NCBI GenBank assembly: GCA_905182785.1
Contig: CAJJDF010000034.1
Span: 20,953-84,952 of the forward strand
DNA length: 64,000 nucleotides
Direction of reading: 5' to 3'
Source: an uncultured Flavobacteriales bacterium
Lineage (GTDB): Bacteria; Bacteroidota; Bacteroidia; Flavobacteriales_D; CAJJDF01
Below are positions 1,158-20,325 of the stretch, piece by piece; position 1 is the stretch's first letter; each line of letters starts with the position of its first letter. The notes below the pieces were generated by a model. It was not told the DNA's origin and did not search any database. It saw nothing but the letters and a program-made list of their open reading frames with translations. The position numbers and the translations under genes were made by a program.

Positions 1158-3470
1158 TTGAAAGTCTGTATAGCTGAGAAACCAAGTGTAGCAAGAGAAA
1201 TTGCTAGTATATTAGGAGCCGATATAAAACGTAACGGCTACTATGAGGGGAATGGCTATGCGGTAACCTATACTTTTGGGCATTTGTGTACACTTTTGGA
1301 GCCTAGTGATTACCATCCACAATGGAAAAAATGGGATTTGAATATCTTACCCATGTTACCTGAGCGTTTTGACACCAAGGTAAATTCTAATGCGGGAATA
1401 AGAAAACAGTTTGACATTATAAAATCTTTATTCGACAAAGCGTCTGTGGTAATTAATTGCGGGGATGCAGGAACTGAAGGAGAGCTGATTCAAAGGTGGG
1501 TAATTAATCAATGTGAGTATAAAGGGGAAGTGAAAAGGCTATGGATTTCTTCGCTTACAGAAGAAGCTATCAAAGAAGGGTTTAAGAATTTGAAACCTTC
1601 TGCAAACTATGATAATTTGTATTATGCAGGTTTTTCTAGAGCGATTGGCGATTGGTTGTTGGGTTTAAATGCTACCCGTTTATTCACTGTGAAATACGGG
1701 GGATACAAACAAGTATTATCTGTGGGAAGAGTTCAAACTCCTACCCTAGCCATGTTGGTGAATCGATTTAAAGAAATTCAAAATTTTAAGCCACAACCTT
1801 ACTGGGAACTACAAACCACTTACCGAGATACATTGTTTAATTATGAAGACGGTCGTTTTCTTAAACAAGAAGATGGGCAAGTTTTAGCTGATAAAGTAAA
1901 GGAATCTGATTTTGAGATTATTTCTGTGAGCAAAAAGAAAGGAAAGGAATATGCTCCCAAACTGTTTGATTTAACTGGATTACAAGTGTATTGCAATACG
2001 AAATTTGGGTTTTCTGCTGATGAAACTTTAAAAACGGTTCAGAAGTTATATGAAATGAAAGTAGTTACTTACCCAAGAGTAGACACCACTTTTTTGCCTA
2101 ATGATGTTTACCCAAAGATTGAAGGAACCTTATCCAAATTAAATAATTACAGCCAGTTAACTCAACCCCTTTTAGGAGATAAAATAAGGAAGACTAAGCG
2201 TGTTTTTGATGATAAAAAGGTAACAGATCACCATGCCATTATACCAACTGGAATTCAGAATCATTTGCAACACAACCAACAATTGGTGTATGATATAATT
2301 ACACGAAGGTTTATTGGTGTGTTCTATCCAGAATCGGATGTTTCTAATTCCACTGTGATTGGCGAAGTAGCAGCTGTTCCTTTTAAAACCACAGGAAAAG
2401 AAATTTTGACCAAAGGCTGGCGAGTTGTATTTGAAACAGAAACGAGCAAAGACAAGGAGGAGCAACCTATTTTACCCACTTTTGTTAAAGGAGAAAAAGG
2501 ACCACACGAACCTTCTTTTTTAGAAAAAGAAACTAAACCACCAAGAAATTTCACAGAAGCTAGTTTGTTACGTGCCATGGAAACAGCAGGAAAACAAGTA
2601 GATGATGATGAAATGCGAGAGTTGATGAAAGAAAACGGAATTGGAAGACCGTCAACAAGGGCTAGTATTATTGAAACTTTATTTAGAAGAAAGTACATTG
2701 AACGCAAGAAAAAATTGGTTATTCCCACCGAAACAGGTGTTGGTTTAATTGATTTGATAGACAATGAACTGCTAAAGTCTGCTGAATTGACTGGACGTTG
2801 GGAAAAGCGATTGAAAGAAATTGAAAGAGGAGAATTTAAAGCGGGTACATTCATCCACAACATGAAAAAGATGGTGTATGAAATGGTGGAAGAAGTGAAA
2901 GCAAATAACACGGTAAAACGAATCACTTCCAATGTTCCTGAGAGCAAACCTGTGCAATCGTCAAAACCTGCCGTTAAAACAACAACAGTAAAATCGAAAA
3001 AAGAAGTGGTGGGAAAAACCTGCCTTAAATGTAAGAAAGGAAGCTTGATAAAAGGAGGAAGTGCTTATGGTTGTTCTGATTATAAAAACGGGTGTCAGTT
3101 TATCATTCCATTTAAGATTTACGGAAAGAAAATTTCTGAAAATCAATTGATACGATTGATTGACAAAGGAAGTACAACTAATTTGAAAGGGTTTACTATG
3201 GATTCTGGAAAGGTGGATGGATTAATAAAATTGGATGATAATTTTAATCTAACCTTAGAACCTAAAGTTTCGAAAACAATTGCTAAAAAATCGGAGACAA
3301 TCAGTTGCCCAAAATGTAAAAAAGGAACTATTTTGAAAGGAAAAACGGCCTACGGTTGTTCTCATTATAAAACAGGCTGTGATTTTGTGTTCACTTTTCA
3401 AAAGATTAAAGAAGTAGCTAACGGAAAAACATTAACTAAAGAGCTCGTTTTGGATATTATATCTAAATAA
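1158..3470 (+). CDS. topB: DNA topoisomerase III with two C-terminal C4 zinc ribbons
   Basis: TOPRIM N-terminus MKVCIAEKPSVA, GRVQTPTL, and the active-site region around YPRVDT. There are two CxxC...CxxxxxC ribbons near the C-terminus. The start is TTG because a TAG lies two codons upstream (1152-1154). Confidence 0.9.
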   Translation: MKVCIAEKPSVAREIASILGADIKRNGYYEGNGYAVTYTFGHLCTLLEPSDYHPQWKKWDLNILPMLPERFDTKVNSNAGIRKQFDIIKSLFDKASVVINCGDAGTEGELIQRWVINQCEYKGEVKRLWISSLTEEAIKEGFKNLKPSANYDNLYYAGFSRAIGDWLLGLNATRLFTVKYGGYKQVLSVGRVQTPTLAMLVNRFKEIQNFKPQPYWELQTTYRDTLFNYEDGRFLKQEDGQVLADKVKESDFEIISVSKKKGKEYAPKLFDLTGLQVYCNTKFGFSADETLKTVQKLYEMKVVTYPRVDTTFLPNDVYPKIEGTLSKLNNYSQLTQPLLGDKIRKTKRVFDDKKVTDHHAIIPTGIQNHLQHNQQLVYDIITRRFIGVFYPESDVSNSTVIGEVAAVPFKTTGKEILTKGWRVVFETETSKDKEEQPILPTFVKGEKGPHEPSFLEKETKPPRNFTEASLLRAMETAGKQVDDDEMRELMKENGIGRPSTRASIIETLFRRKYIERKKKLVIPTETGVGLIDLIDNELLKSAELTGRWEKRLKEIERGEFKAGTFIHNMKKMVYEMVEEVKANNTVKRITSNVPESKPVQSSKPAVKTTTVKSKKEVVGKTCLKCKKGSLIKGGSAYGCSDYKNGCQFIIPFKIYGKKISENQLIRLIDKGSTTNLKGFTMDSGKVDGLIKLDDNFNLTLEPKVSKTIAKKSETISCPKCKKGTILKGKTAYGCSHYKTGCDFVFTFQKIKEVANGKTLTKELVLDIISK

Positions 3471-3487: not shown

Positions 3488-4609
3488 TTAAAATAAACCG
3501 ATATTTTCCCCTCTCAACTCATTCATCACGCTAGTTTCCTTCAAAAACTGAGTCCAATATTTCTCCGGTAATTGTTCTTGGTTCATAAAGGCAATGCATT
3601 CCTTGAAAGACTCTATTACAGAGCTTTGAATAGTATTTACATTACACCACTCATAAAAAACAGCAAACTCCTCCTCTATTTGTCTTTTCTTTTCAATTGG
3701 AAAAGCTTTAATATTATAATAAAATGGCCTTTCAAGAATGTTGATGTAAAAGTCTTCGGTATTTATGATATTCTTCTCAATTCCAGTTTTATACAACTGA
3801 GGTAAATGAGCCAAATTAAGAATGGAGATTGTGGGAGCCAATTTGAAATTTATGTTCTCAAAACTTCTTATTTTCTCTCTGTTGGCAAGGAATAATTCCC
3901 AATTAAATTCCTTTCTTATGATTTCTCCTAGTTTTTCCGTGGCATCCACACTCCCTAAAACTTCTACTTTTTCGAACTGTTTCCAATACTCTAGAATATC
4001 ATATTCTTTAAATTTTAAGATAGAGAAATTGGTGTTGTATCTTAATTGTAAGTCGGTTATTCCATTTTCTATCAACCAATCTAGCAATAAATAATGTTCT
4101 TCGGTTACCAAAGGTTCGCCACCTGCAAAGTATATTTCTTTCGCTCCTTTTAATGCTTCTCCAGTTTCCGAAATGAATTGATTAAAATCATTTATGTTAT
4201 TGATAATAGCTTTTTCTCCTAAATTCCTTCCTAGTTTCTTAGCGTCTTGAAACCATTTAGAACTTGCGCCATGCCAACAAGTTCGGCATCTAAAATTACA
4301 AACGTTAGAGAATCGAATATCAAAATAAATTGGTTTCTCTTTTACTGTAATTTCTGTTGGAATTACCTCTGGGAATTTCTCGTAAGTTTCTTGCCTTATA
4401 CTCTTTCCTCCAGCTTCTTCAAGCTTATAGCAACCCGAACACCTTTTGTCTATTTCGCCTTTTAGGAATTTAGTTCTTAATTCCTGAATGGGTTCTCCAT
4501 TCCAAATTTCTTCAAACGAGTTTTCGTTTACATTTCCCAAAGGAATATTAGCAATACAACAAGCTTTTACTTTCCCATTGTCACTCACGTGATAATGAAT
4601 CCATGGCAT
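3488..4609 (-). CDS. Radical SAM enzyme with an N-terminal twitch/SPASM-like Cys-rich domain
   Basis: The CX3CX2C cluster motif CNFRCRTC and the GGEPL SAM-binding motif lie downstream of an N-terminal SPASM-like segment (GKVKACC...LGN...EEIWNG...RCSGC). Confidence 0.8.
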   Translation of the reverse strand: MPWIHYHVSDNGKVKACCIANIPLGNVNENSFEEIWNGEPIQELRTKFLKGEIDKRCSGCYKLEEAGGKSIRQETYEKFPEVIPTEITVKEKPIYFDIRFSNVCNFRCRTCWHGASSKWFQDAKKLGRNLGEKAIINNINDFNQFISETGEALKGAKEIYFAGGEPLVTEEHYLLLDWLIENGITDLQLRYNTNFSILKFKEYDILEYWKQFEKVEVLGSVDATEKLGEIIRKEFNWELFLANREKIRSFENINFKLAPTISILNLAHLPQLYKTGIEKNIINTEDFYINILERPFYYNIKAFPIEKKRQIEEEFAVFYEWCNVNTIQSSVIESFKECIAFMNQEQLPEKYWTQFLKETSVMNELRGENIGLF

Positions 4610-4639
4610 TAAGCAGTATGGTTTGGAGTTAGAAATAGA

Positions 4640-5875
4640 TTACTTCTTTTTTCTCTTCACTTTCTTATCAATATCTTCAATCTGCCCCATCAGTTCTTTG
4701 ATACTCAAATTTGTGTCTTCACTAAAATCTATTGTTTTTCTGTATTCATTTTGTTGTAATTCCAATACTTTAATTGGCTTTCCAACAAAATCTTCAATTT
4801 CTTTTAATAAAGGTTTTTCTTCTTTTGCACAAAATGAAACGGCATCTCCTTTCAATCTCCCTCTTCCTGTTCTACCAATCCTGTGTACGTAGTTTTCTGC
4901 TACATCTGGCATGTCATAATTCACAACATAATCCACATTAGCAATATCAATTCCACGAGCCGAAACATCTGTAGCTATCAGTATTTTTATTTCTCCTGTT
5001 CGGAATTTACCCATTACAGAAGTACGGGCTTTTTGTTCCTTATCTCCATGAATTGTTTCGGACACTACTTCCACTCTATCCATTGCTTTTTTAACTCTTT
5101 CTGCTCTTACTTTTGTTCGCACAAACACCAATATTTTCTTATCTGTATTTTCTTTGATTAATCGTTCCAAGAAAAAACGCTTGTCGTCCATTTTGATAAA
5201 AGCAACCGAGTGCTTTATATTTCTAGACACGGGATCTTTAGGTGCTATTTGAATACGAATAGCATTACTACGAATCAAATCGTAGGCAATCTTCTTAATC
5301 TTTTTGTTTATCGTAGCCGAGAAAAACAGAGTTTGTTTCATTTTTGGCATACGAGCAATTACATCTTCAATGTCTTTTATAAAACCTAAATCCAACATGT
5401 GATCGGCTTCATCCAACACCAAAGTATTTACTTTATCCAGATTTACATACTCTTGGTTGTGTAAATCAAACATACGTCCAGGAGTTGTGACCAGTACATC
5501 TACCCCGCTCAATAACCTGTCTATTTGTGATTCTTGCTCCACTCCTCCATACAAGGCAAGTGTTTTTACTTTTGTTCCTTTCCCTAATTTATTAAAAACT
5601 TCGGCAATTTGTTGTGCCAATTCTCTTGTAGGAACCATAACCAAAGCACGAATTACATTTTCTTTGTTGTTCTTTTTTTTCCTTTGAATGTAATTAATAA
5701 TAGGAATTGCAAAGGCAGCAGTCTTACCAGTTCCTGTTTGTGCAATTGCTAATAAATCTTCCCCCTTTACAATGGCAGGAATCGATTTGTATTGGATATC
5801 GGTAGGTTTTTTAAAACCCATCATTTCCAGATTTTTTATAATCTCTGGTGTAAAATTGTATTCGCTAAATTTCAT
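4640..5875 (-). CDS. DEAD-box ATP-dependent RNA helicase (RhlE-like) with a basic C-terminal tail
   Basis: Q-motif region (FKKPTDIQ), Walker A AQTGTGKT, DEAD box (VLDEADHM), SAT, and HRIGRTGR. Confidence 0.92.
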   Translation of the reverse strand: MKFSEYNFTPEIIKNLEMMGFKKPTDIQYKSIPAIVKGEDLLAIAQTGTGKTAAFAIPIINYIQRKKKNNKENVIRALVMVPTRELAQQIAEVFNKLGKGTKVKTLALYGGVEQESQIDRLLSGVDVLVTTPGRMFDLHNQEYVNLDKVNTLVLDEADHMLDLGFIKDIEDVIARMPKMKQTLFFSATINKKIKKIAYDLIRSNAIRIQIAPKDPVSRNIKHSVAFIKMDDKRFFLERLIKENTDKKILVFVRTKVRAERVKKAMDRVEVVSETIHGDKEQKARTSVMGKFRTGEIKILIATDVSARGIDIANVDYVVNYDMPDVAENYVHRIGRTGRGRLKGDAVSFCAKEEKPLLKEIEDFVGKPIKVLELQQNEYRKTIDFSEDTNLSIKELMGQIEDIDKKVKRKKK

Positions 5876-6037: not shown

Positions 6038-7570
6038 CTACCAACTAATCGGCATGTAATCTTTCAAAAACTTCCCACACCAATGCTTTCCAGTGATTAT
6101 TCCATCAATTAAAGGATCTAATACTCTGGCAGCTCCATCTACAATATCTAATGGAGGTTGAAAATCGTGTTCTTTTTGTTTCTTTTGAGATAATAAAACT
6201 GGATCTTCATCCGTAACCCAACCTGTATCCACAGCATTCATAAATACTCCATCTTTAGCAAATTCTGCCGCAGAAGTATGAGTTAGCATATTTAAAGCAG
6301 CTTTTGCCATGTTGGTGTGTGGATGTCTAGCAATTTTCTTAAACGTATGAAATTTACCTTCCATGGCCGAAACATTAATAATGTGTTTCATTCCTGTATT
6401 CTCTTCTCTCATCAGGTTACTCAAACGATTACACAATACAAATGGAGCAATAGAATTCACTAATTGAACCTCTATCATTTCAAGCGTTTCTATTTCTCCT
6501 AGTTTCAATCTCCAACTGTTCGTTTTTCTCAAATCTACTTGTTGTAAATCTGCATCCAACTGTCCTTCAGGAAATACTTCTTCGGGAGTTAAAGAATTAT
6601 CAAAACTATAAGGGATTTGCGATAATTTGGCCGAAGCTCTCAGTCCAATTCCTGGTTGACTTCCATGCCAAGTAACAGGTAAGTTTTTTTGGTCGGCAGT
6701 GTTTTCTGCAAAGGAATTCAATTCATTGATACACATTTCGTGATCTTTCAATAATCCTTGTGCAAACTGAGGTAATTCTTCAAACGATAATTCTTCCTTA
6801 TCCATCAAATGCTTAAAGAAACCGGCAGGTCTTCTTACAGTTTGAGCTGCATTATTAATTAAGATATCTAATCGTTTGTATTTGGATTCTATAAAATTAC
6901 AGAAGATTTCTACACTAGGAATATGTCTTAAATCCAATCCGTGAATGTGTAACCTATGTCCCCATTCAGTAAAATCTTCTTCTTTGGAAAAACGCAAAGC
7001 AGAATCTACAGGAAAACGAGTTGTAGCTACAACTTCGGCACCAGAACGCAATAGGATTAAAGTAATATGATACCCAATTTTTAATCTAGAACCAGTTACT
7101 ACTGCAACTTGCCCTTTCATGTCAGCAGTTTGAAAACGTTTGGCATAATTAAAATCCCCACACGATTCGCACATGGTATCGTAAAAATGGTGTAATTCGG
7201 TAAATTCTTCCTTACAAACGTAACAGTTCCTTGCTGACTCTAAGGATTTGTTTGTTCGCTCTTTTGGAATTTCTAGTAATTTAGGAGCAACAAAAACAGC
7301 ATCTTCTCTCGCACTTCTTATTCCCGTTTCTTTACGAGCGTGCTTTTCTCTTTCTCTTTTCTTTCTTGCTTCTGCTTTTTTAATCTCCTTTACCCTATTC
7401 TGTTTTTCTTTCTTATCTGGACGCGATAATTTTCCAGCCAAAATCATTAATTCTTCCCTTTTCTCTCTCGTCAAATCATATAACTGATCTGGGTTATCAA
7501 GAAAATTCGATAGCGTAGAAATTACCTTATCAATTTCTACTTTTGAAGCTGAGTTCTCTTTGTTTTCCAT
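6038..7570 (-). CDS. Atypical short-chain dehydrogenase/reductase with an N-terminal charged helix and a CxxC...CxxC zinc ribbon
   Basis: Rossmann motif [13 protein letters not shown] and NNAA are present. The expected YxxxK site reads T-N-M-A-K. The N-terminal part holds a [28 protein letters not shown] stretch followed by CYVCKEEF...CESCGDF. Confidence 0.75.
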
Positions 7571-11967: not shown

Positions 11968-11975
11968 GGCTGTTG

Positions 11976-12048
11976 TGATCCAGCTGGGATTCGAACCCAG
12001 GACCCACGCCTTAAAAGGGCGTTGCTCTACCAACTGAGCTACTGAATC
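11976..12048 (-). tRNA. tRNA-Lys (anticodon UUU), copy 1
   Basis: The reverse complement reads GATTCAG-TA-GCTC-AGTTGGTA-GAGC-A-ACGCC-CTTTTAA-GGCGT-GGGTC-CTGGG-TTCGAAT-CCCAG-CTGGATC-A, a canonical cloverleaf. Confidence 0.95.
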
Positions 12049-13391: not shown

Positions 13392-15494
13392 CTATAGGTT
13401 TTGAAGCCAAAAATAGGTTTTTTCCTTCCCATTAAAAAAGAACTTTCCGTGTCGCATCCTATCAAATTGAATATACATAAATGTGAAATATTCACCATCT
13501 GCTAGGTTTATATCACCTTGCCAAACACCATTAGTCTTATCCATTTTAGATAAGCGTAATTCTCCAGTTGAAAAATCTCCATCTTTATCTTCATCAATAA
13601 CTAAATAAAGCGGTTTGTCTACTCCCATTGGTGGGGTTGGTAAATCTGCACTGTCAATTTGAACCAACAATTCGCCCACATCATTATAGTTCTCTTCGAC
13701 TAACCATTCTCTTTTTAATCGATAAATGATGTTAAATCCTGCTTGAGTTTCACTATTAACCCAAGTATTTTTAGAACTGTCATTATTTGCCCACATTAGG
13801 GTAATTTTATCATTAGTAAATGGAGTTAGGTGTGCTAAATTGTTTACAGCAATATTCATTAAACCTATGGTTACCATGCCATCTGGATTAACGCTTTTAC
13901 TTTGTCTTTGATCTAAACCGTAAAAATCATCTTGCCCAATACCGGTAATGTCATGTATATAGGTTGTTGAAACTGAATCTTCCCAAGCTGATGTACTGTC
14001 AGACAAAGTATAATCGGTTCCCACTGTACCGTCATTGTCATTGTCGTTTATTTGGTCTAATGTTATCCCATATTTAATTGCTAAATATGATTCTATTATA
14101 TTTATTTCGTTTAGTAAAAATGTATTTCCTAAAACGTGTTCAACATTCATAATTTCAGCAATATTACCATCATAGTGTCGGTTAATATTATCTGAACCAA
14201 CAAAGGTCGTATCTCCATTCCCTTTTACAGTTCCACCGGATTTTGTTGATATTTCTAATCCGTTTCTAGAAATACTTTCGGCAGTATTGGATTGAATAAA
14301 TGACCATAAATAAGGTGTATTGAGTGTTCCTCCCCAAGCAACAGATTGTTCATTTTGTGTACCTGCGTCAAAATAAGATTTTCCATCTCCCGAAACATCA
14401 ACAACTCCAAAGCTATTAACACCTGATAAGGGCTCTTCCAATAAATATTGGTTTTTTATTGATTTAGGTATAGAAACTACAAATGATGTTTCGTGTAAAT
14501 TAAAACCTGTGATAATAGCCCCTCCTGGTTTTATCATTTTAGTAGTGGATCCATCAAATAATAAGGATGGATTGAAATTTATGGAATTAGATACATAAGT
14601 AGGCTCTTCTCCTGAAATAGTATACAAAGAATCATTTGGTAGATCTTGATTTTTCCATTTACTAACTAAAGGAGAGCCAACTAATCCATCGTCAGCTTTT
14701 ACCCAAAACCTTCTGAATACTTTTACACATGGAACTGGAGCTGTTATTGTAACTTGGTATACAGATACCGCTCCACTATTAGTAAGCATTCTTCCTTCTA
14801 CTGTTCCTCCAGCACCTATTGAAACTGCTCCTGCCCCAGAAATAAGCGTTCCTTTCATTTGTGTATTTGTCGCCATTGCTATAGCACCTCCAGATGCCCA
14901 AAACACATTACAAGGTAAAGCTCCGTTGATCAATACTATATTGGCACCTGCTCCTGTGGTAAATGCTCCTCCAAATTTAAATATAAAAACTGAACTGAAA
15001 TCTCCTTGGCCATCTAGTATTAGAGTTCCTGCCGCTGATCCAGCTCCTGCTTCGGCATATACTCCTGGCAAAACTGTTTCACCTCCACCAAATGCAGGTG
15101 TGTGACCAAAAATTGTTTGAGGAATAACAAGTAATTGATTGTATAGGTCTTGTACATCAATTACACCCTGAGCAGTTAAGGCATTAGCCGAATCTATTGT
15201 TCCTGTAACATTAGTTGGGGATCCAAATCCAGTTATTGCACCATTATTTGTACCTATATTTCCTCCGATAAAAGACGTTGCAGTATTACTCAATGCCCCA
15301 GAAGATGTAAATAGGGCAAACTGTTCCGTTACTCCTAAATTTAGTGACTGGGCAGAAATGTTAATTGAAAAAAATAATACTATAATAGGAGTTAATATTA
15401 TTACCGAAAAATGTATTTTAAATTTCGGTATACAATATTTAATGGTGTCTATATTTTTTTTAATTAGACTATTAAGTAGATTGGTTTCCTTCAT
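13392..15494 (-). CDS. DUF3494 ice-binding-family domain fused to a roughly 440-aa C-terminal region (LamG-like and Asp-rich segments)
   Basis: Residues about 50-255 follow the DUF3494 pattern: LGVTEQFALFTSSGALSNT...GNIGTNNGAITGF, VLPGVY, LDGQGD..SVFIFKFGGAFTT, INGALPCNVFW, and GRMLTNSGAVS...VTITAP. Confidence 0.85.
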   Translation of the reverse strand: MKETNLLNSLIKKNIDTIKYCIPKFKIHFSVIILTPIIVLFFSINISAQSLNLGVTEQFALFTSSGALSNTATSFIGGNIGTNNGAITGFGSPTNVTGTIDSANALTAQGVIDVQDLYNQLLVIPQTIFGHTPAFGGGETVLPGVYAEAGAGSAAGTLILDGQGDFSSVFIFKFGGAFTTGAGANIVLINGALPCNVFWASGGAIAMATNTQMKGTLISGAGAVSIGAGGTVEGRMLTNSGAVSVYQVTITAPVPCVKVFRRFWVKADDGLVGSPLVSKWKNQDLPNDSLYTISGEEPTYVSNSINFNPSLLFDGSTTKMIKPGGAIITGFNLHETSFVVSIPKSIKNQYLLEEPLSGVNSFGVVDVSGDGKSYFDAGTQNEQSVAWGGTLNTPYLWSFIQSNTAESISRNGLEISTKSGGTVKGNGDTTFVGSDNINRHYDGNIAEIMNVEHVLGNTFLLNEINIIESYLAIKYGITLDQINDNDNDGTVGTDYTLSDSTSAWEDSVSTTYIHDITGIGQDDFYGLDQRQSKSVNPDGMVTIGLMNIAVNNLAHLTPFTNDKITLMWANNDSSKNTWVNSETQAGFNIIYRLKREWLVEENYNDVGELLVQIDSADLPTPPMGVDKPLYLVIDEDKDGDFSTGELRLSKMDKTNGVWQGDINLADGEYFTFMYIQFDRMRHGKFFFNGKEKTYFWLQNL

Positions 15495-16039: not shown

Positions 16040-16051
16040 GAATTGCTGTTG

Positions 16052-16124
16052 TGATCCAGCTGGGATTCGAACCCAGGACCCACGCCTTAAAAGGGCGTTG
16101 CTCTACCAACTGAGCTACTGAATC
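16052..16124 (-). tRNA. tRNA-Lys (anticodon UUU), copy 2
   Basis: Sequence is identical to copy 1. Confidence 0.95.

Positions 16125-17658: not shown

Positions 17659-20325
<2,667 letters not shown>

Follow-up and report, generated by a model that had tools for sequence, protein, structure and literature searches.

A radical SAM protein with its twitch domain ahead of the barrel and a probable ATT start codon in an uncultured Flavobacteriales bacterium

The 64,000-nucleotide stretch of DNA analysed here (the window), from an uncultured Flavobacteriales bacterium, carries on its minus strand a gene for a radical S-adenosylmethionine (SAM) protein in which the auxiliary Fe-S domain precedes the barrel, an order reversed with respect to canonical SPASM/twitch enzymes. 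We are highly confident that the locus encodes an intact member, with two predicted clusters, of NF033640, a named, catalogued and uncharacterised family. Our explanation of the locus as a whole, namely an intact two-cluster enzyme that is translated from an ATT codon and acts on a carbohydrate-type substrate, is put forward tentatively, and its parts are held with different strength below.

Domain order, cluster motifs and predicted fold

The open reading frame (ORF) encodes 373 amino acids, from an ATG at 4607-4609 to a stop at 3488-3490. Its match to the NCBIfam profile NF033640 (N_Twi_rSAM; family name "twitch domain-containing radical SAM protein") reaches 348.7 bits against a cutoff of 170 (E=4.5e-104) and spans the full length, with amino acids 1-370 of the ORF on profile positions 7-387 of 398; all other NCBIfam families score far under their cutoffs. 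An earlier note on this DNA, made from the letters alone, had pointed to an NCBI family with an N-terminal twitch domain that is not known to have an assigned substrate, and had proposed such a profile search. The family does exist, it is the only one above cutoff, and it has no assigned reaction; a search of the literature for NF033640 or for N-terminal twitch or SPASM radical SAM proteins found generic reviews only and no paper on the family.

Pfam places SPASM at amino acids 2-61 of the ORF (47.9 bits), followed by Radical_SAM at 99-248. In NCBIfam, ORF amino acids 8-78 align with the C-terminal SPASM regions of NirJ2, AhbC, AhbD, GeoRSP radical SAM proteins and others, and the twitch domain of SkfB also aligns to the N-terminal stretch of the protein. 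The earlier reading that the first ~65 amino acids resemble a region normally found after the barrel, and that the domain order appears permuted, is thereby borne out. SPASM and twitch domains have been defined as C-terminal extensions (PMC9012708), the layout of the canonical subgroup (SFLD subgroup 17), whereas in the window protein the auxiliary domain stands before the (beta/alpha)6 barrel. The paper describing RadicalSAM.org mentions some members of the SPASM/twitch megacluster with cysteines conserved N-terminal to the barrel, with no structures (PMC9477430).

Residues are numbered hereafter from the ATT codon discussed in the next section, which adds 9 to the ORF numbering. Conservation was scored in a set of 125 diverse single-domain members, which are 30-82% identical to the window protein. 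The features of the gene are as follows.

3488-4636, minus strand: entire proposed coding sequence of the radical SAM protein with N-terminal twitch, 382 amino acids and a stop, ATT to TAA (NF033640 match; in-frame conservation in 78 loci)
4634-4636, minus strand: ATT, the probable non-canonical start, at the family start position and 3 nt past the stop of the helicase gene
4376-4636, minus strand: N-terminal twitch (half-SPASM) domain, amino acids 1-87, beta-hairpin and helices (Pfam SPASM; AlphaFold2; SkfB twitch alignment)
4613-4615, minus strand: codon TGC of Cys8, first Cys of the CX12GX4C motif, outside the ATG-delimited ORF (91% of the 125 members; in frame in 78 loci)
4556-4561, minus strand: codons TGT TGT of Cys26-Cys27, after the beta-hairpin (99% and 97% of members)
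4430-4441, minus strand: Cys66-x2-Cys69 (CSGC), the CX2C pair of the twitch motif (both 100%)
4277-4300, minus strand: radical SAM cluster motif C113-x3-C117-x2-C120 (CNFRCRTC), invariant (Pfam Radical_SAM)
4115-4123, minus strand: GGE motif, amino acids 172-174, the SAM-binding element after beta-strand 2 (model strand 167-170), invariant
3722-4339, minus strand: partial (beta/alpha)6 radical SAM barrel, about amino acids 100-305 (AlphaFold2 strand and helix pattern; Foldseek)
3491-3721, minus strand: C-terminal three-helix domain, amino acids 306-382, with the motif D/N372-x2-R375-x-E377 (helices 314-333, 338-351 and 358-375; conservation)

The twitch signature C8-x12-G21-x4-C26...C66-x2-C69 fits the SPASM/twitch pattern, and the combination that defines NF033640, twitch Cys residues (CX9-15GX4C ... 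CX2C) together with CX3CX2C and GGE, is present in the window protein, where C8 counts only if translation begins at the ATT. The CNFRCRTC cluster motif and GGEPL, which had been noticed behind the N-terminal domain, are both in the ORF. In addition to C66, C69, C113, C117, C120 and G172-G173-E174, the residues N111, S125, N203, S229, D231 and R241 are invariant, and those conserved in at least 90% of the members include C8, C26, C27, R54, S79, R81, D106, R108, R118, W128, H181, Y200, R375 and E377. The N-terminal Cys residues, whose conservation the earlier note had named as a test, are kept in 91-100% of these members. A full SPASM domain has 7-8 Cys residues and two auxiliary clusters, whereas only five Cys residues are conserved here outside the SAM motif, and the CX2CX5CX3C block of full SPASM is absent; the domain is therefore of twitch type, with one auxiliary cluster predicted. 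Five conserved Cys residues are available for four auxiliary ligand positions, and one may speculate that the extra residue of the CC pair is a spare ligand or a hydrogen-atom donor.

The AlphaFold2 model, built with the family alignment, has a pLDDT of 96.9 and a pTM of 0.93. In the twitch domain it contains strands at 14-17, 22-24 and 32-35 and helices at 41-45, 48-58 and 64-74. The C-terminal three-helix domain has no Pfam match; the other NF033640 members have the same domain order, Cys motifs and C-terminal helical domain, and nothing in the window protein is structurally different from them. The gene of the closest relative, whose protein is 99% identical, differs from that of the window synonymously at 19 codons and nonsynonymously at 3, and the gene body is under purifying selection. 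Judged from its motifs and its model, the protein has all the features that one would look for in an active radical SAM enzyme carrying a single auxiliary [4Fe-4S] cluster.

The start of the gene

The start was compared in 80 related loci from species-representative genomes and the window, 81 loci in all, at 51-99% protein identity. The ORF as delimited by its ATG cuts off the first twitch Cys, which lies three codons upstream. In an alignment with 19 relatives the family N-terminus reads MxxxxPYCLMPWIHYHV, and the conserved Cys stands three residues ahead of the window Met. The 10 codons between the stop of the upstream helicase gene (TAA, 4640-4642) and the ATG are in frame and read S-I-S-N-S-K-P-Y-C-L, and in the window the part from the helicase stop to the conserved PYC codons contains neither ATG, GTG nor TTG. 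The tripeptide (P/T)-(Y/F/H/V/T)-C is encoded in frame at this place in all 78 loci for which upstream DNA is available. Most loci have an ATG exactly nine codons before the internal Met, replaced by GTG in L071 and by TTG in L077. The window and seven loci have no canonical start in the open frame, and every one of them has an Ile codon at the family start position: L064 has ATA there, while the window, L001, L004-L007 and L075 have ATT. An ATT stands at this position in L003 too, whose annotated ATG is located further upstream, overlapping the helicase gene. The start lies 1-3 nt past the helicase stop in five loci of this ATT clade, and the gap is about 50 nt in L005 and L007.

The codons for P-Y-C-L differ synonymously among these loci (TAC/TAT, TGC/TGT, TTA/CTA/CTC/CTT). 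Since the amino acids between the ATT and the ATG are kept while third positions change, the stretch appears to be translated, and this conserved in-frame stretch argues for a coding region of 3488-4636 and a gap of 3 nt to the helicase gene. It is most likely that translation starts at the near-cognate ATT at 4634-4636. The earlier note had taken the ORF at 3488-4609 as the gene, so that the first cluster ligand (Cys8) was overlooked and the gap to the helicase gene was given as 30 bp. An ATT start would keep expression low and would probably couple it to translation of the helicase.

A damaged gene would also account for some of these observations: the lineage might translate a 373-residue protein without Cys8 from the ATG at 4607-4609, or nothing at all. 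There is no canonical start codon upstream of Cys8, 1127 nt including the ATG start of a relative at 99% identity are missing from the window, and public gene calls for four relatives (P0009, P0012, P0028 and P0115) begin at MPW. We consider damage very improbable, because the ATT junction occurs in 8 loci whose proteins are 51-82% identical to that of the window, the codons from ATT to ATG keep their amino acids with synonymous changes, the gene body has the bias towards synonymous differences given above, and the Met encoded by the ATG is an internal conserved residue in members with upstream starts. A fusion of the helicase and the radical SAM protein by stop readthrough was also considered and rejected: the TAA stands in frame in the window and in L001 and L006, whereas in L003 and L004 it is out of frame.

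The most probable ATT start carries a lesson for annotation. Public gene calls for the clade either begin too late, at the internal Met, so that a cluster ligand is lost, or run into the helicase gene, as in P0006.

Gene neighbourhood and the question of an RNA substrate

The two genes that flank the radical SAM gene are the following.

4640-5875, minus strand: RhlE/CshA-like DEAD-box RNA helicase, lying upstream in the same orientation, to be seen as a neighbour and not as a demonstrated partner (NCBIfam about 380 bits, below equivalog cutoffs)
1158-3470, plus strand: DNA topoisomerase III (topB), convergent, with 17 nt between the stops (NF005829, 659 bits against 597; TIGR01056, 580 against 515.75)

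This arrangement had been described correctly in the earlier note, which also considered a role in RNA modification linked to the helicase conceivable and asked whether the linkage holds across genera. It does not. By tblastn the helicase gene lies directly upstream in no more than 8 of the 81 loci, namely the window, L001, L003-L007 and L064, all of them Flavobacteriales metagenome-assembled genomes (MAGs) of one subclade, and it is absent from this place in Saprospiraceae, Marinifilaceae, Crocinitomicaceae and others. Searching with the window neighbours likewise located topB in 7 of the 80 related loci. As helicase and topB each accompany 7 of 80 relatives, neither was retained as a family-wide partner. 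In the Flavobacteriales clade topB converges on the radical SAM gene, and in the Saprospiraceae loci L037 and L046 it has the same orientation and follows about 100 nt downstream; its recurrence in two lineages may be due to chance or be left over from old synteny, and it is too sparse to build on.

The closest relative is instructive with regard to the helicase. L086 (99% protein identity, 98-99% nucleotide identity) keeps this gene order, but helicase and radical SAM gene are 1127 nt further apart, its segment 4913-6039 standing in place of 8 nt in the window (4625-4632). The segment holds a gene of 332 amino acids with a Por_Secre_tail (type IX secretion) domain and a terminator-like hairpin with a T-run, and the radical SAM gene of L086 begins at its own ATG (MSQNSDKPYCL...). 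Relatives at 80-99% identity include both types of junction, which indicates an indel polymorphism. L075 has the ATT start and no helicase nearby. The helicase adjacency is recent, local and dispensable; it is a lineage-specific gene order and not a functional module.

The idea that the enzyme modifies RNA or another nucleic acid together with the helicase, and perhaps with topoisomerase III, can be judged on this ground. The short distance between helicase stop and radical SAM start in the clade suggests translational coupling, topB adjoins the gene in two lineages, the conserved arginines would suit a phosphate backbone, and MiaB, TYW1 and QueE are among the weak Foldseek matches (template modelling (TM) scores of 0.28-0.37 for MiaB and TYW1). 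However, the helicase adjacency is confined to one subclade, it is broken in L086 by an insertion that brings a gene, a hairpin and a separate ATG, and it is missing in L075 despite the ATT start. No known RNA-modifying radical SAM family rises above noise: among the NCBIfam models for RlmN/Cfr, MiaB/RimO, TYW1 and QueE, only QueE gave a match, with 14.7 bits against a cutoff of 260. Moreover, the gene is carried by about 243 of 185,579 species genomes, which argues against a housekeeping function. We therefore regard an RNA substrate as improbable, and the suggestion of the earlier note is not upheld.

Beyond the helicase and topB, the surroundings of the gene have little in common from locus to locus. 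De novo clustering of 1047 flanking ORFs found no neighbour family in more than 16 of the 81 loci, and the recurring neighbours reflect lineage-specific synteny. The immediate neighbours, named by reading of the ORFs and not by database matches, are unrelated by function: they include tRNA-dihydrouridine synthase (Dus), Ni superoxide dismutase (NiSOD), YaaA, SppA, polyphosphate kinase 2 (PPK2), a DnaJ-domain protein, an S41 peptidase, an endonuclease-I-like protein and ornithine aminotransferase. The window gene is a true orphan. The earlier note had seen no context typical of RiPPs (ribosomally synthesised and post-translationally modified peptides), that is no precursor, transporter or peptidase, and no RiPP-type context is present in the 80 related loci either. 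Rfam detected no riboswitch or other known RNA element upstream of the gene in the window or in 7 loci, and in the window its only hits were two tRNA genes; a thiamine pyrophosphate (TPP) riboswitch in L017 was dismissed as a control element of the radical SAM gene, as it belongs to another operon. A scan for sigma-70 promoters gave 22 promoter-like sites in comparison with a mean of 18.9 in shuffled sequences, with a consensus that does not suit Bacteroidota, and a terminator scan gave 6 sites in comparison with 2.6 in shuffles, a higher number, yet with no site bearing on the radical SAM gene. Recent horizontal transfer was rejected, since the GC content (0.333) and the third-position GC content are ordinary for the region.

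Several observations on these loci deserve record in their own right. L054, a contig binned as Desulfobacterales, shares the radical SAM gene and five flanking families with the Flavobacteriales MAG L072; it may be mis-binned, and the presence of the family in Desulfobacterales is doubtful. On the Marinifilum chromosome L020, two group II intron copies occur downstream of the radical SAM gene (14849-15025, 18074-18250, 18492-18573). In the window itself, the minus-strand gene at 6038-7570 encodes a 510-residue protein of the short-chain dehydrogenase/reductase (SDR) family with an N-terminal extension of about 145 amino acids, which is Lys/Glu-rich and then Cys-rich; this extended SDR gene is kept beside a DsbA-like gene throughout the clade. 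The two tRNA genes, both tRNA-Lys(UUU) on the minus strand (11975-12048 and 16051-16124), score identically in Rfam and are separated by 4 kb, with two ORFs of 334 and 700 amino acids between them, and the pair may represent a duplication or an integration site.

Wider family, substrate and reaction

In a phmmer search of 1.84 billion representative proteins, 11,405 relatives passed a limit of E <= 1e-3 and 1063 passed the stricter one of E <= 1e-30, the latter being clusters at 50% identity. The nearest outgroup, P0122 (45% identity), is encoded by a solitary gene like that of the window. Distant members include tandem double or triple copies and fusions to TPR or Sel1 repeats, to an FkbM-type methyltransferase (P0188) and to a GT2 glycosyltransferase (P0246). 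Whereas the orthologue group of the window consists of solitary genes, many other NF033640 members are located in glycosyltransferase-rich or multi-radical-SAM clusters. One such locus holds GT4, two GT2, an ATP-binding cassette (ABC) exporter, PqqD, NTP_transf_5, a methyltransferase and a sulfatase, and another holds three GT2, GT4, B12-type radical SAM, TPR and GDSL genes. In L084/L085 (164-15736) a run of about 10 consecutive radical SAM genes is headed by a sugar-1-phosphate nucleotidyltransferase and includes a protein of 1106 amino acids in which two N-terminal-twitch units are joined by TPR repeats.

The family is also rich in phage members. Foldseek matched the fold to 24 models of the BFVD database at query-normalised TM scores of 0.5-0.87, among them Vibrio phages KVP40 and phi-pp2, and a PHROG family matched with E=6.5e-15. 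In Vibrio phage K566, which is KVP40-like (L081, 5717-13456), two GT8 genes and one GT4-like gene are interspersed among four paralogues. At least 584 relatives were found in viral contigs of IMG/VR, and context was counted in the 80 best of these loci (L091-L170). They contain 311 ORFs with the full N-terminal twitch and CX3CX2C, at three to five copies per 13 kb in 69 of the 80 (range 1-7). Of these loci, 27 encode a NodU/CmcH-type carbamoyltransferase, 15 have B12-type radical SAM genes and 9 have a sugar epimerase/dehydratase of the NAD-dependent kind; four unannotated families without a Pfam match are each present in 33-49. A study of pelagimyophages has mentioned "radical SAM cassettes" together with GT8 glycosyltransferases in a hypervariable host-recognition cluster (PMC7029224). 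The cassettes of marine T4-like phages, that is of pelagimyophages and KVP40-like vibriophages, share with the window protein the whole-protein fold, at TM scores of 0.6-0.87 in BFVD, as well as the N-terminal twitch and CX3CX2C, at 23-38% identity. They differ from the window in that they typically comprise 3-5 paralogues per locus beside glycosyltransferase-like, carbamoyltransferase and B12-type radical SAM genes, whereas the window gene is single and lies among housekeeping genes.

There is no close solved structure: the best query-normalised Foldseek TM score against the Protein Data Bank (PDB) is 0.44. The cleanest superpositions, over about 210 barrel columns at 3.7-4.5 A, are with a viperin-like enzyme (acting on CTP), BlsE (cytosylglucuronic acid) and MoaA (GTP). 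Of the barrel cores with a solved structure, these three come closest; they are also the best core matches at sequence level, and all act on nucleotides or nucleoside-sugars; their query-normalised TM scores are only 0.37-0.40, and their family scores are far below the cutoffs, MoaA (TIGR02666) reaching 18.8 bits against 284. Viperin has no auxiliary cluster, and the auxiliary domains of MoaA and BlsE are C-terminal, unlike the N-terminal one of the window protein.

On account of the paralogue context, the nearest barrel cores and the many conserved arginines, a substrate of carbohydrate or nucleotide type, such as a nucleotide-sugar, a nucleotide or a glycoconjugate, is a possibility that we favour with considerable doubt. 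The residues R54, R81, R108, R118, R241 and R375, conserved family-wide, would fit an anionic substrate. Three points weigh against this reading: the carbohydrate link is drawn from paralogues at 23-38% identity, in the orthologue group of the window (51-99% identity) none of the 81 loci has a glycosyltransferase or a sugar enzyme as neighbour, and the TPR and Sel1 fusions and the PqqD cassette of other members point to peptide or protein substrates. The ATT start that belongs to the same overall explanation is, for its part, read from comparative evidence.

Most SPASM/twitch enzymes modify peptides or proteins, and the window enzyme might act on a peptide or protein encoded elsewhere in the genome. 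Its N-terminal domain is homologous to the SPASM domains of the maturases WgkB, StsB, SkfB, ScmE/F and PapB, SkfB is the top Foldseek match in the PDB, and TPR and Sel1 repeats, to which other members are fused, bind proteins. Some members are found in a recurring cassette of the order PqqD - ScmC-like - GT2 - N-terminal-twitch radical SAM - GT2 - NTP_transf_5 (L082, 8726-15333, with an ABC exporter; L089, 1068-6766), which looks like a glycosylating peptide-type biosynthetic cluster. Yet the window protein itself has no RiPP recognition element (RRE) and no PqqD match in Pfam, and no precursor-like ORF, RRE/PqqD, protease or exporter is a recurrent neighbour in the 81 loci. The models of those maturases are among the NCBIfam matches that stay far under their cutoffs, and the closest barrel cores are those of nucleotide and nucleoside enzymes, not of maturases. 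A peptide substrate is thus considered unlikely.

A viperin-like, nucleotide-modifying enzyme of antiviral or counter-defence function is far less probable still. Viperin is the best sequence match among PDB chains (E=0.005), the NCBIfam model viperin_w_prok matches with E=3e-7, viperin-like enzymes are among the best barrel superpositions, and the family is very common in phages. However, the prokaryotic viperin model pVip (NF038283) gives 29.9 bits against a cutoff of 180, the matches are limited to the cluster-binding core region, viperins have no auxiliary cluster domain, and the window flanks (ClpB, TopB, helicase, SDR) offer no defence-island context. Membership of a defence system was rejected, as PADLOC gives weak pVip core matches only (30.6 bits).

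The reaction is proposed by analogy with twitch enzymes, whose prototype BtrN, the 2-deoxy-scyllo-inosamine dehydrogenase (PDB 4M7T), has a carbohydrate-type small molecule as its substrate. BtrN also has one auxiliary [4Fe-4S] cluster in a half-SPASM domain, and the layout of that domain, Cys - beta-hairpin - Cys - helix - CX2C, is as in the window protein. It differs in that its twitch follows the barrel, that the C-terminal three-helix domain is absent and that the fifth conserved Cys of the CC pair is lacking, and sequence similarity is marginal (E about 0.6). In the proposed mechanism, C113, C117 and C120 would bind the SAM-cleaving [4Fe-4S] cluster, and C8, C26 or C27, C66 and C69 would bind the auxiliary [4Fe-4S] cluster of the N-terminal twitch domain. 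By analogy, SAM would be reductively cleaved and the 5'-deoxyadenosyl radical would abstract a hydrogen atom from a non-peptide substrate, whereupon the auxiliary cluster may take an electron from the substrate radical in a BtrN-like dehydrogenation. Alternatively, the spare Cys of the CC pair could return a hydrogen atom, resulting in epimerisation. Auxiliary clusters serving as electron acceptor or donor or as substrate anchor have been described for BtrN, SuiB and MoaA (PMC9012708).

A wider scenario may be sketched as a conjecture to which we give rather little credence. The N-terminal-twitch family would perform an undescribed radical tailoring of sugars or glycoconjugates. For marine T4-like phages it would be at work as paralogue arrays within the host-recognition regions, and marine Bacteroidota would keep one domesticated copy for envelope or metabolite chemistry, held very low and condition-dependent by the ATT start and the coupling to the helicase. 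On this view the reversal of the two domains would be a true circular permutation, which may have arisen from tandem arrays like the fused double and triple copies of today. In any case, this is a large, phage-rich family without known reaction, solved structure or literature, and it is a target for first characterisation. The window protein provides a clean case of a twitch domain ahead of the barrel, and thus tests current ideas on how the second cluster is positioned in radical SAM enzymes.

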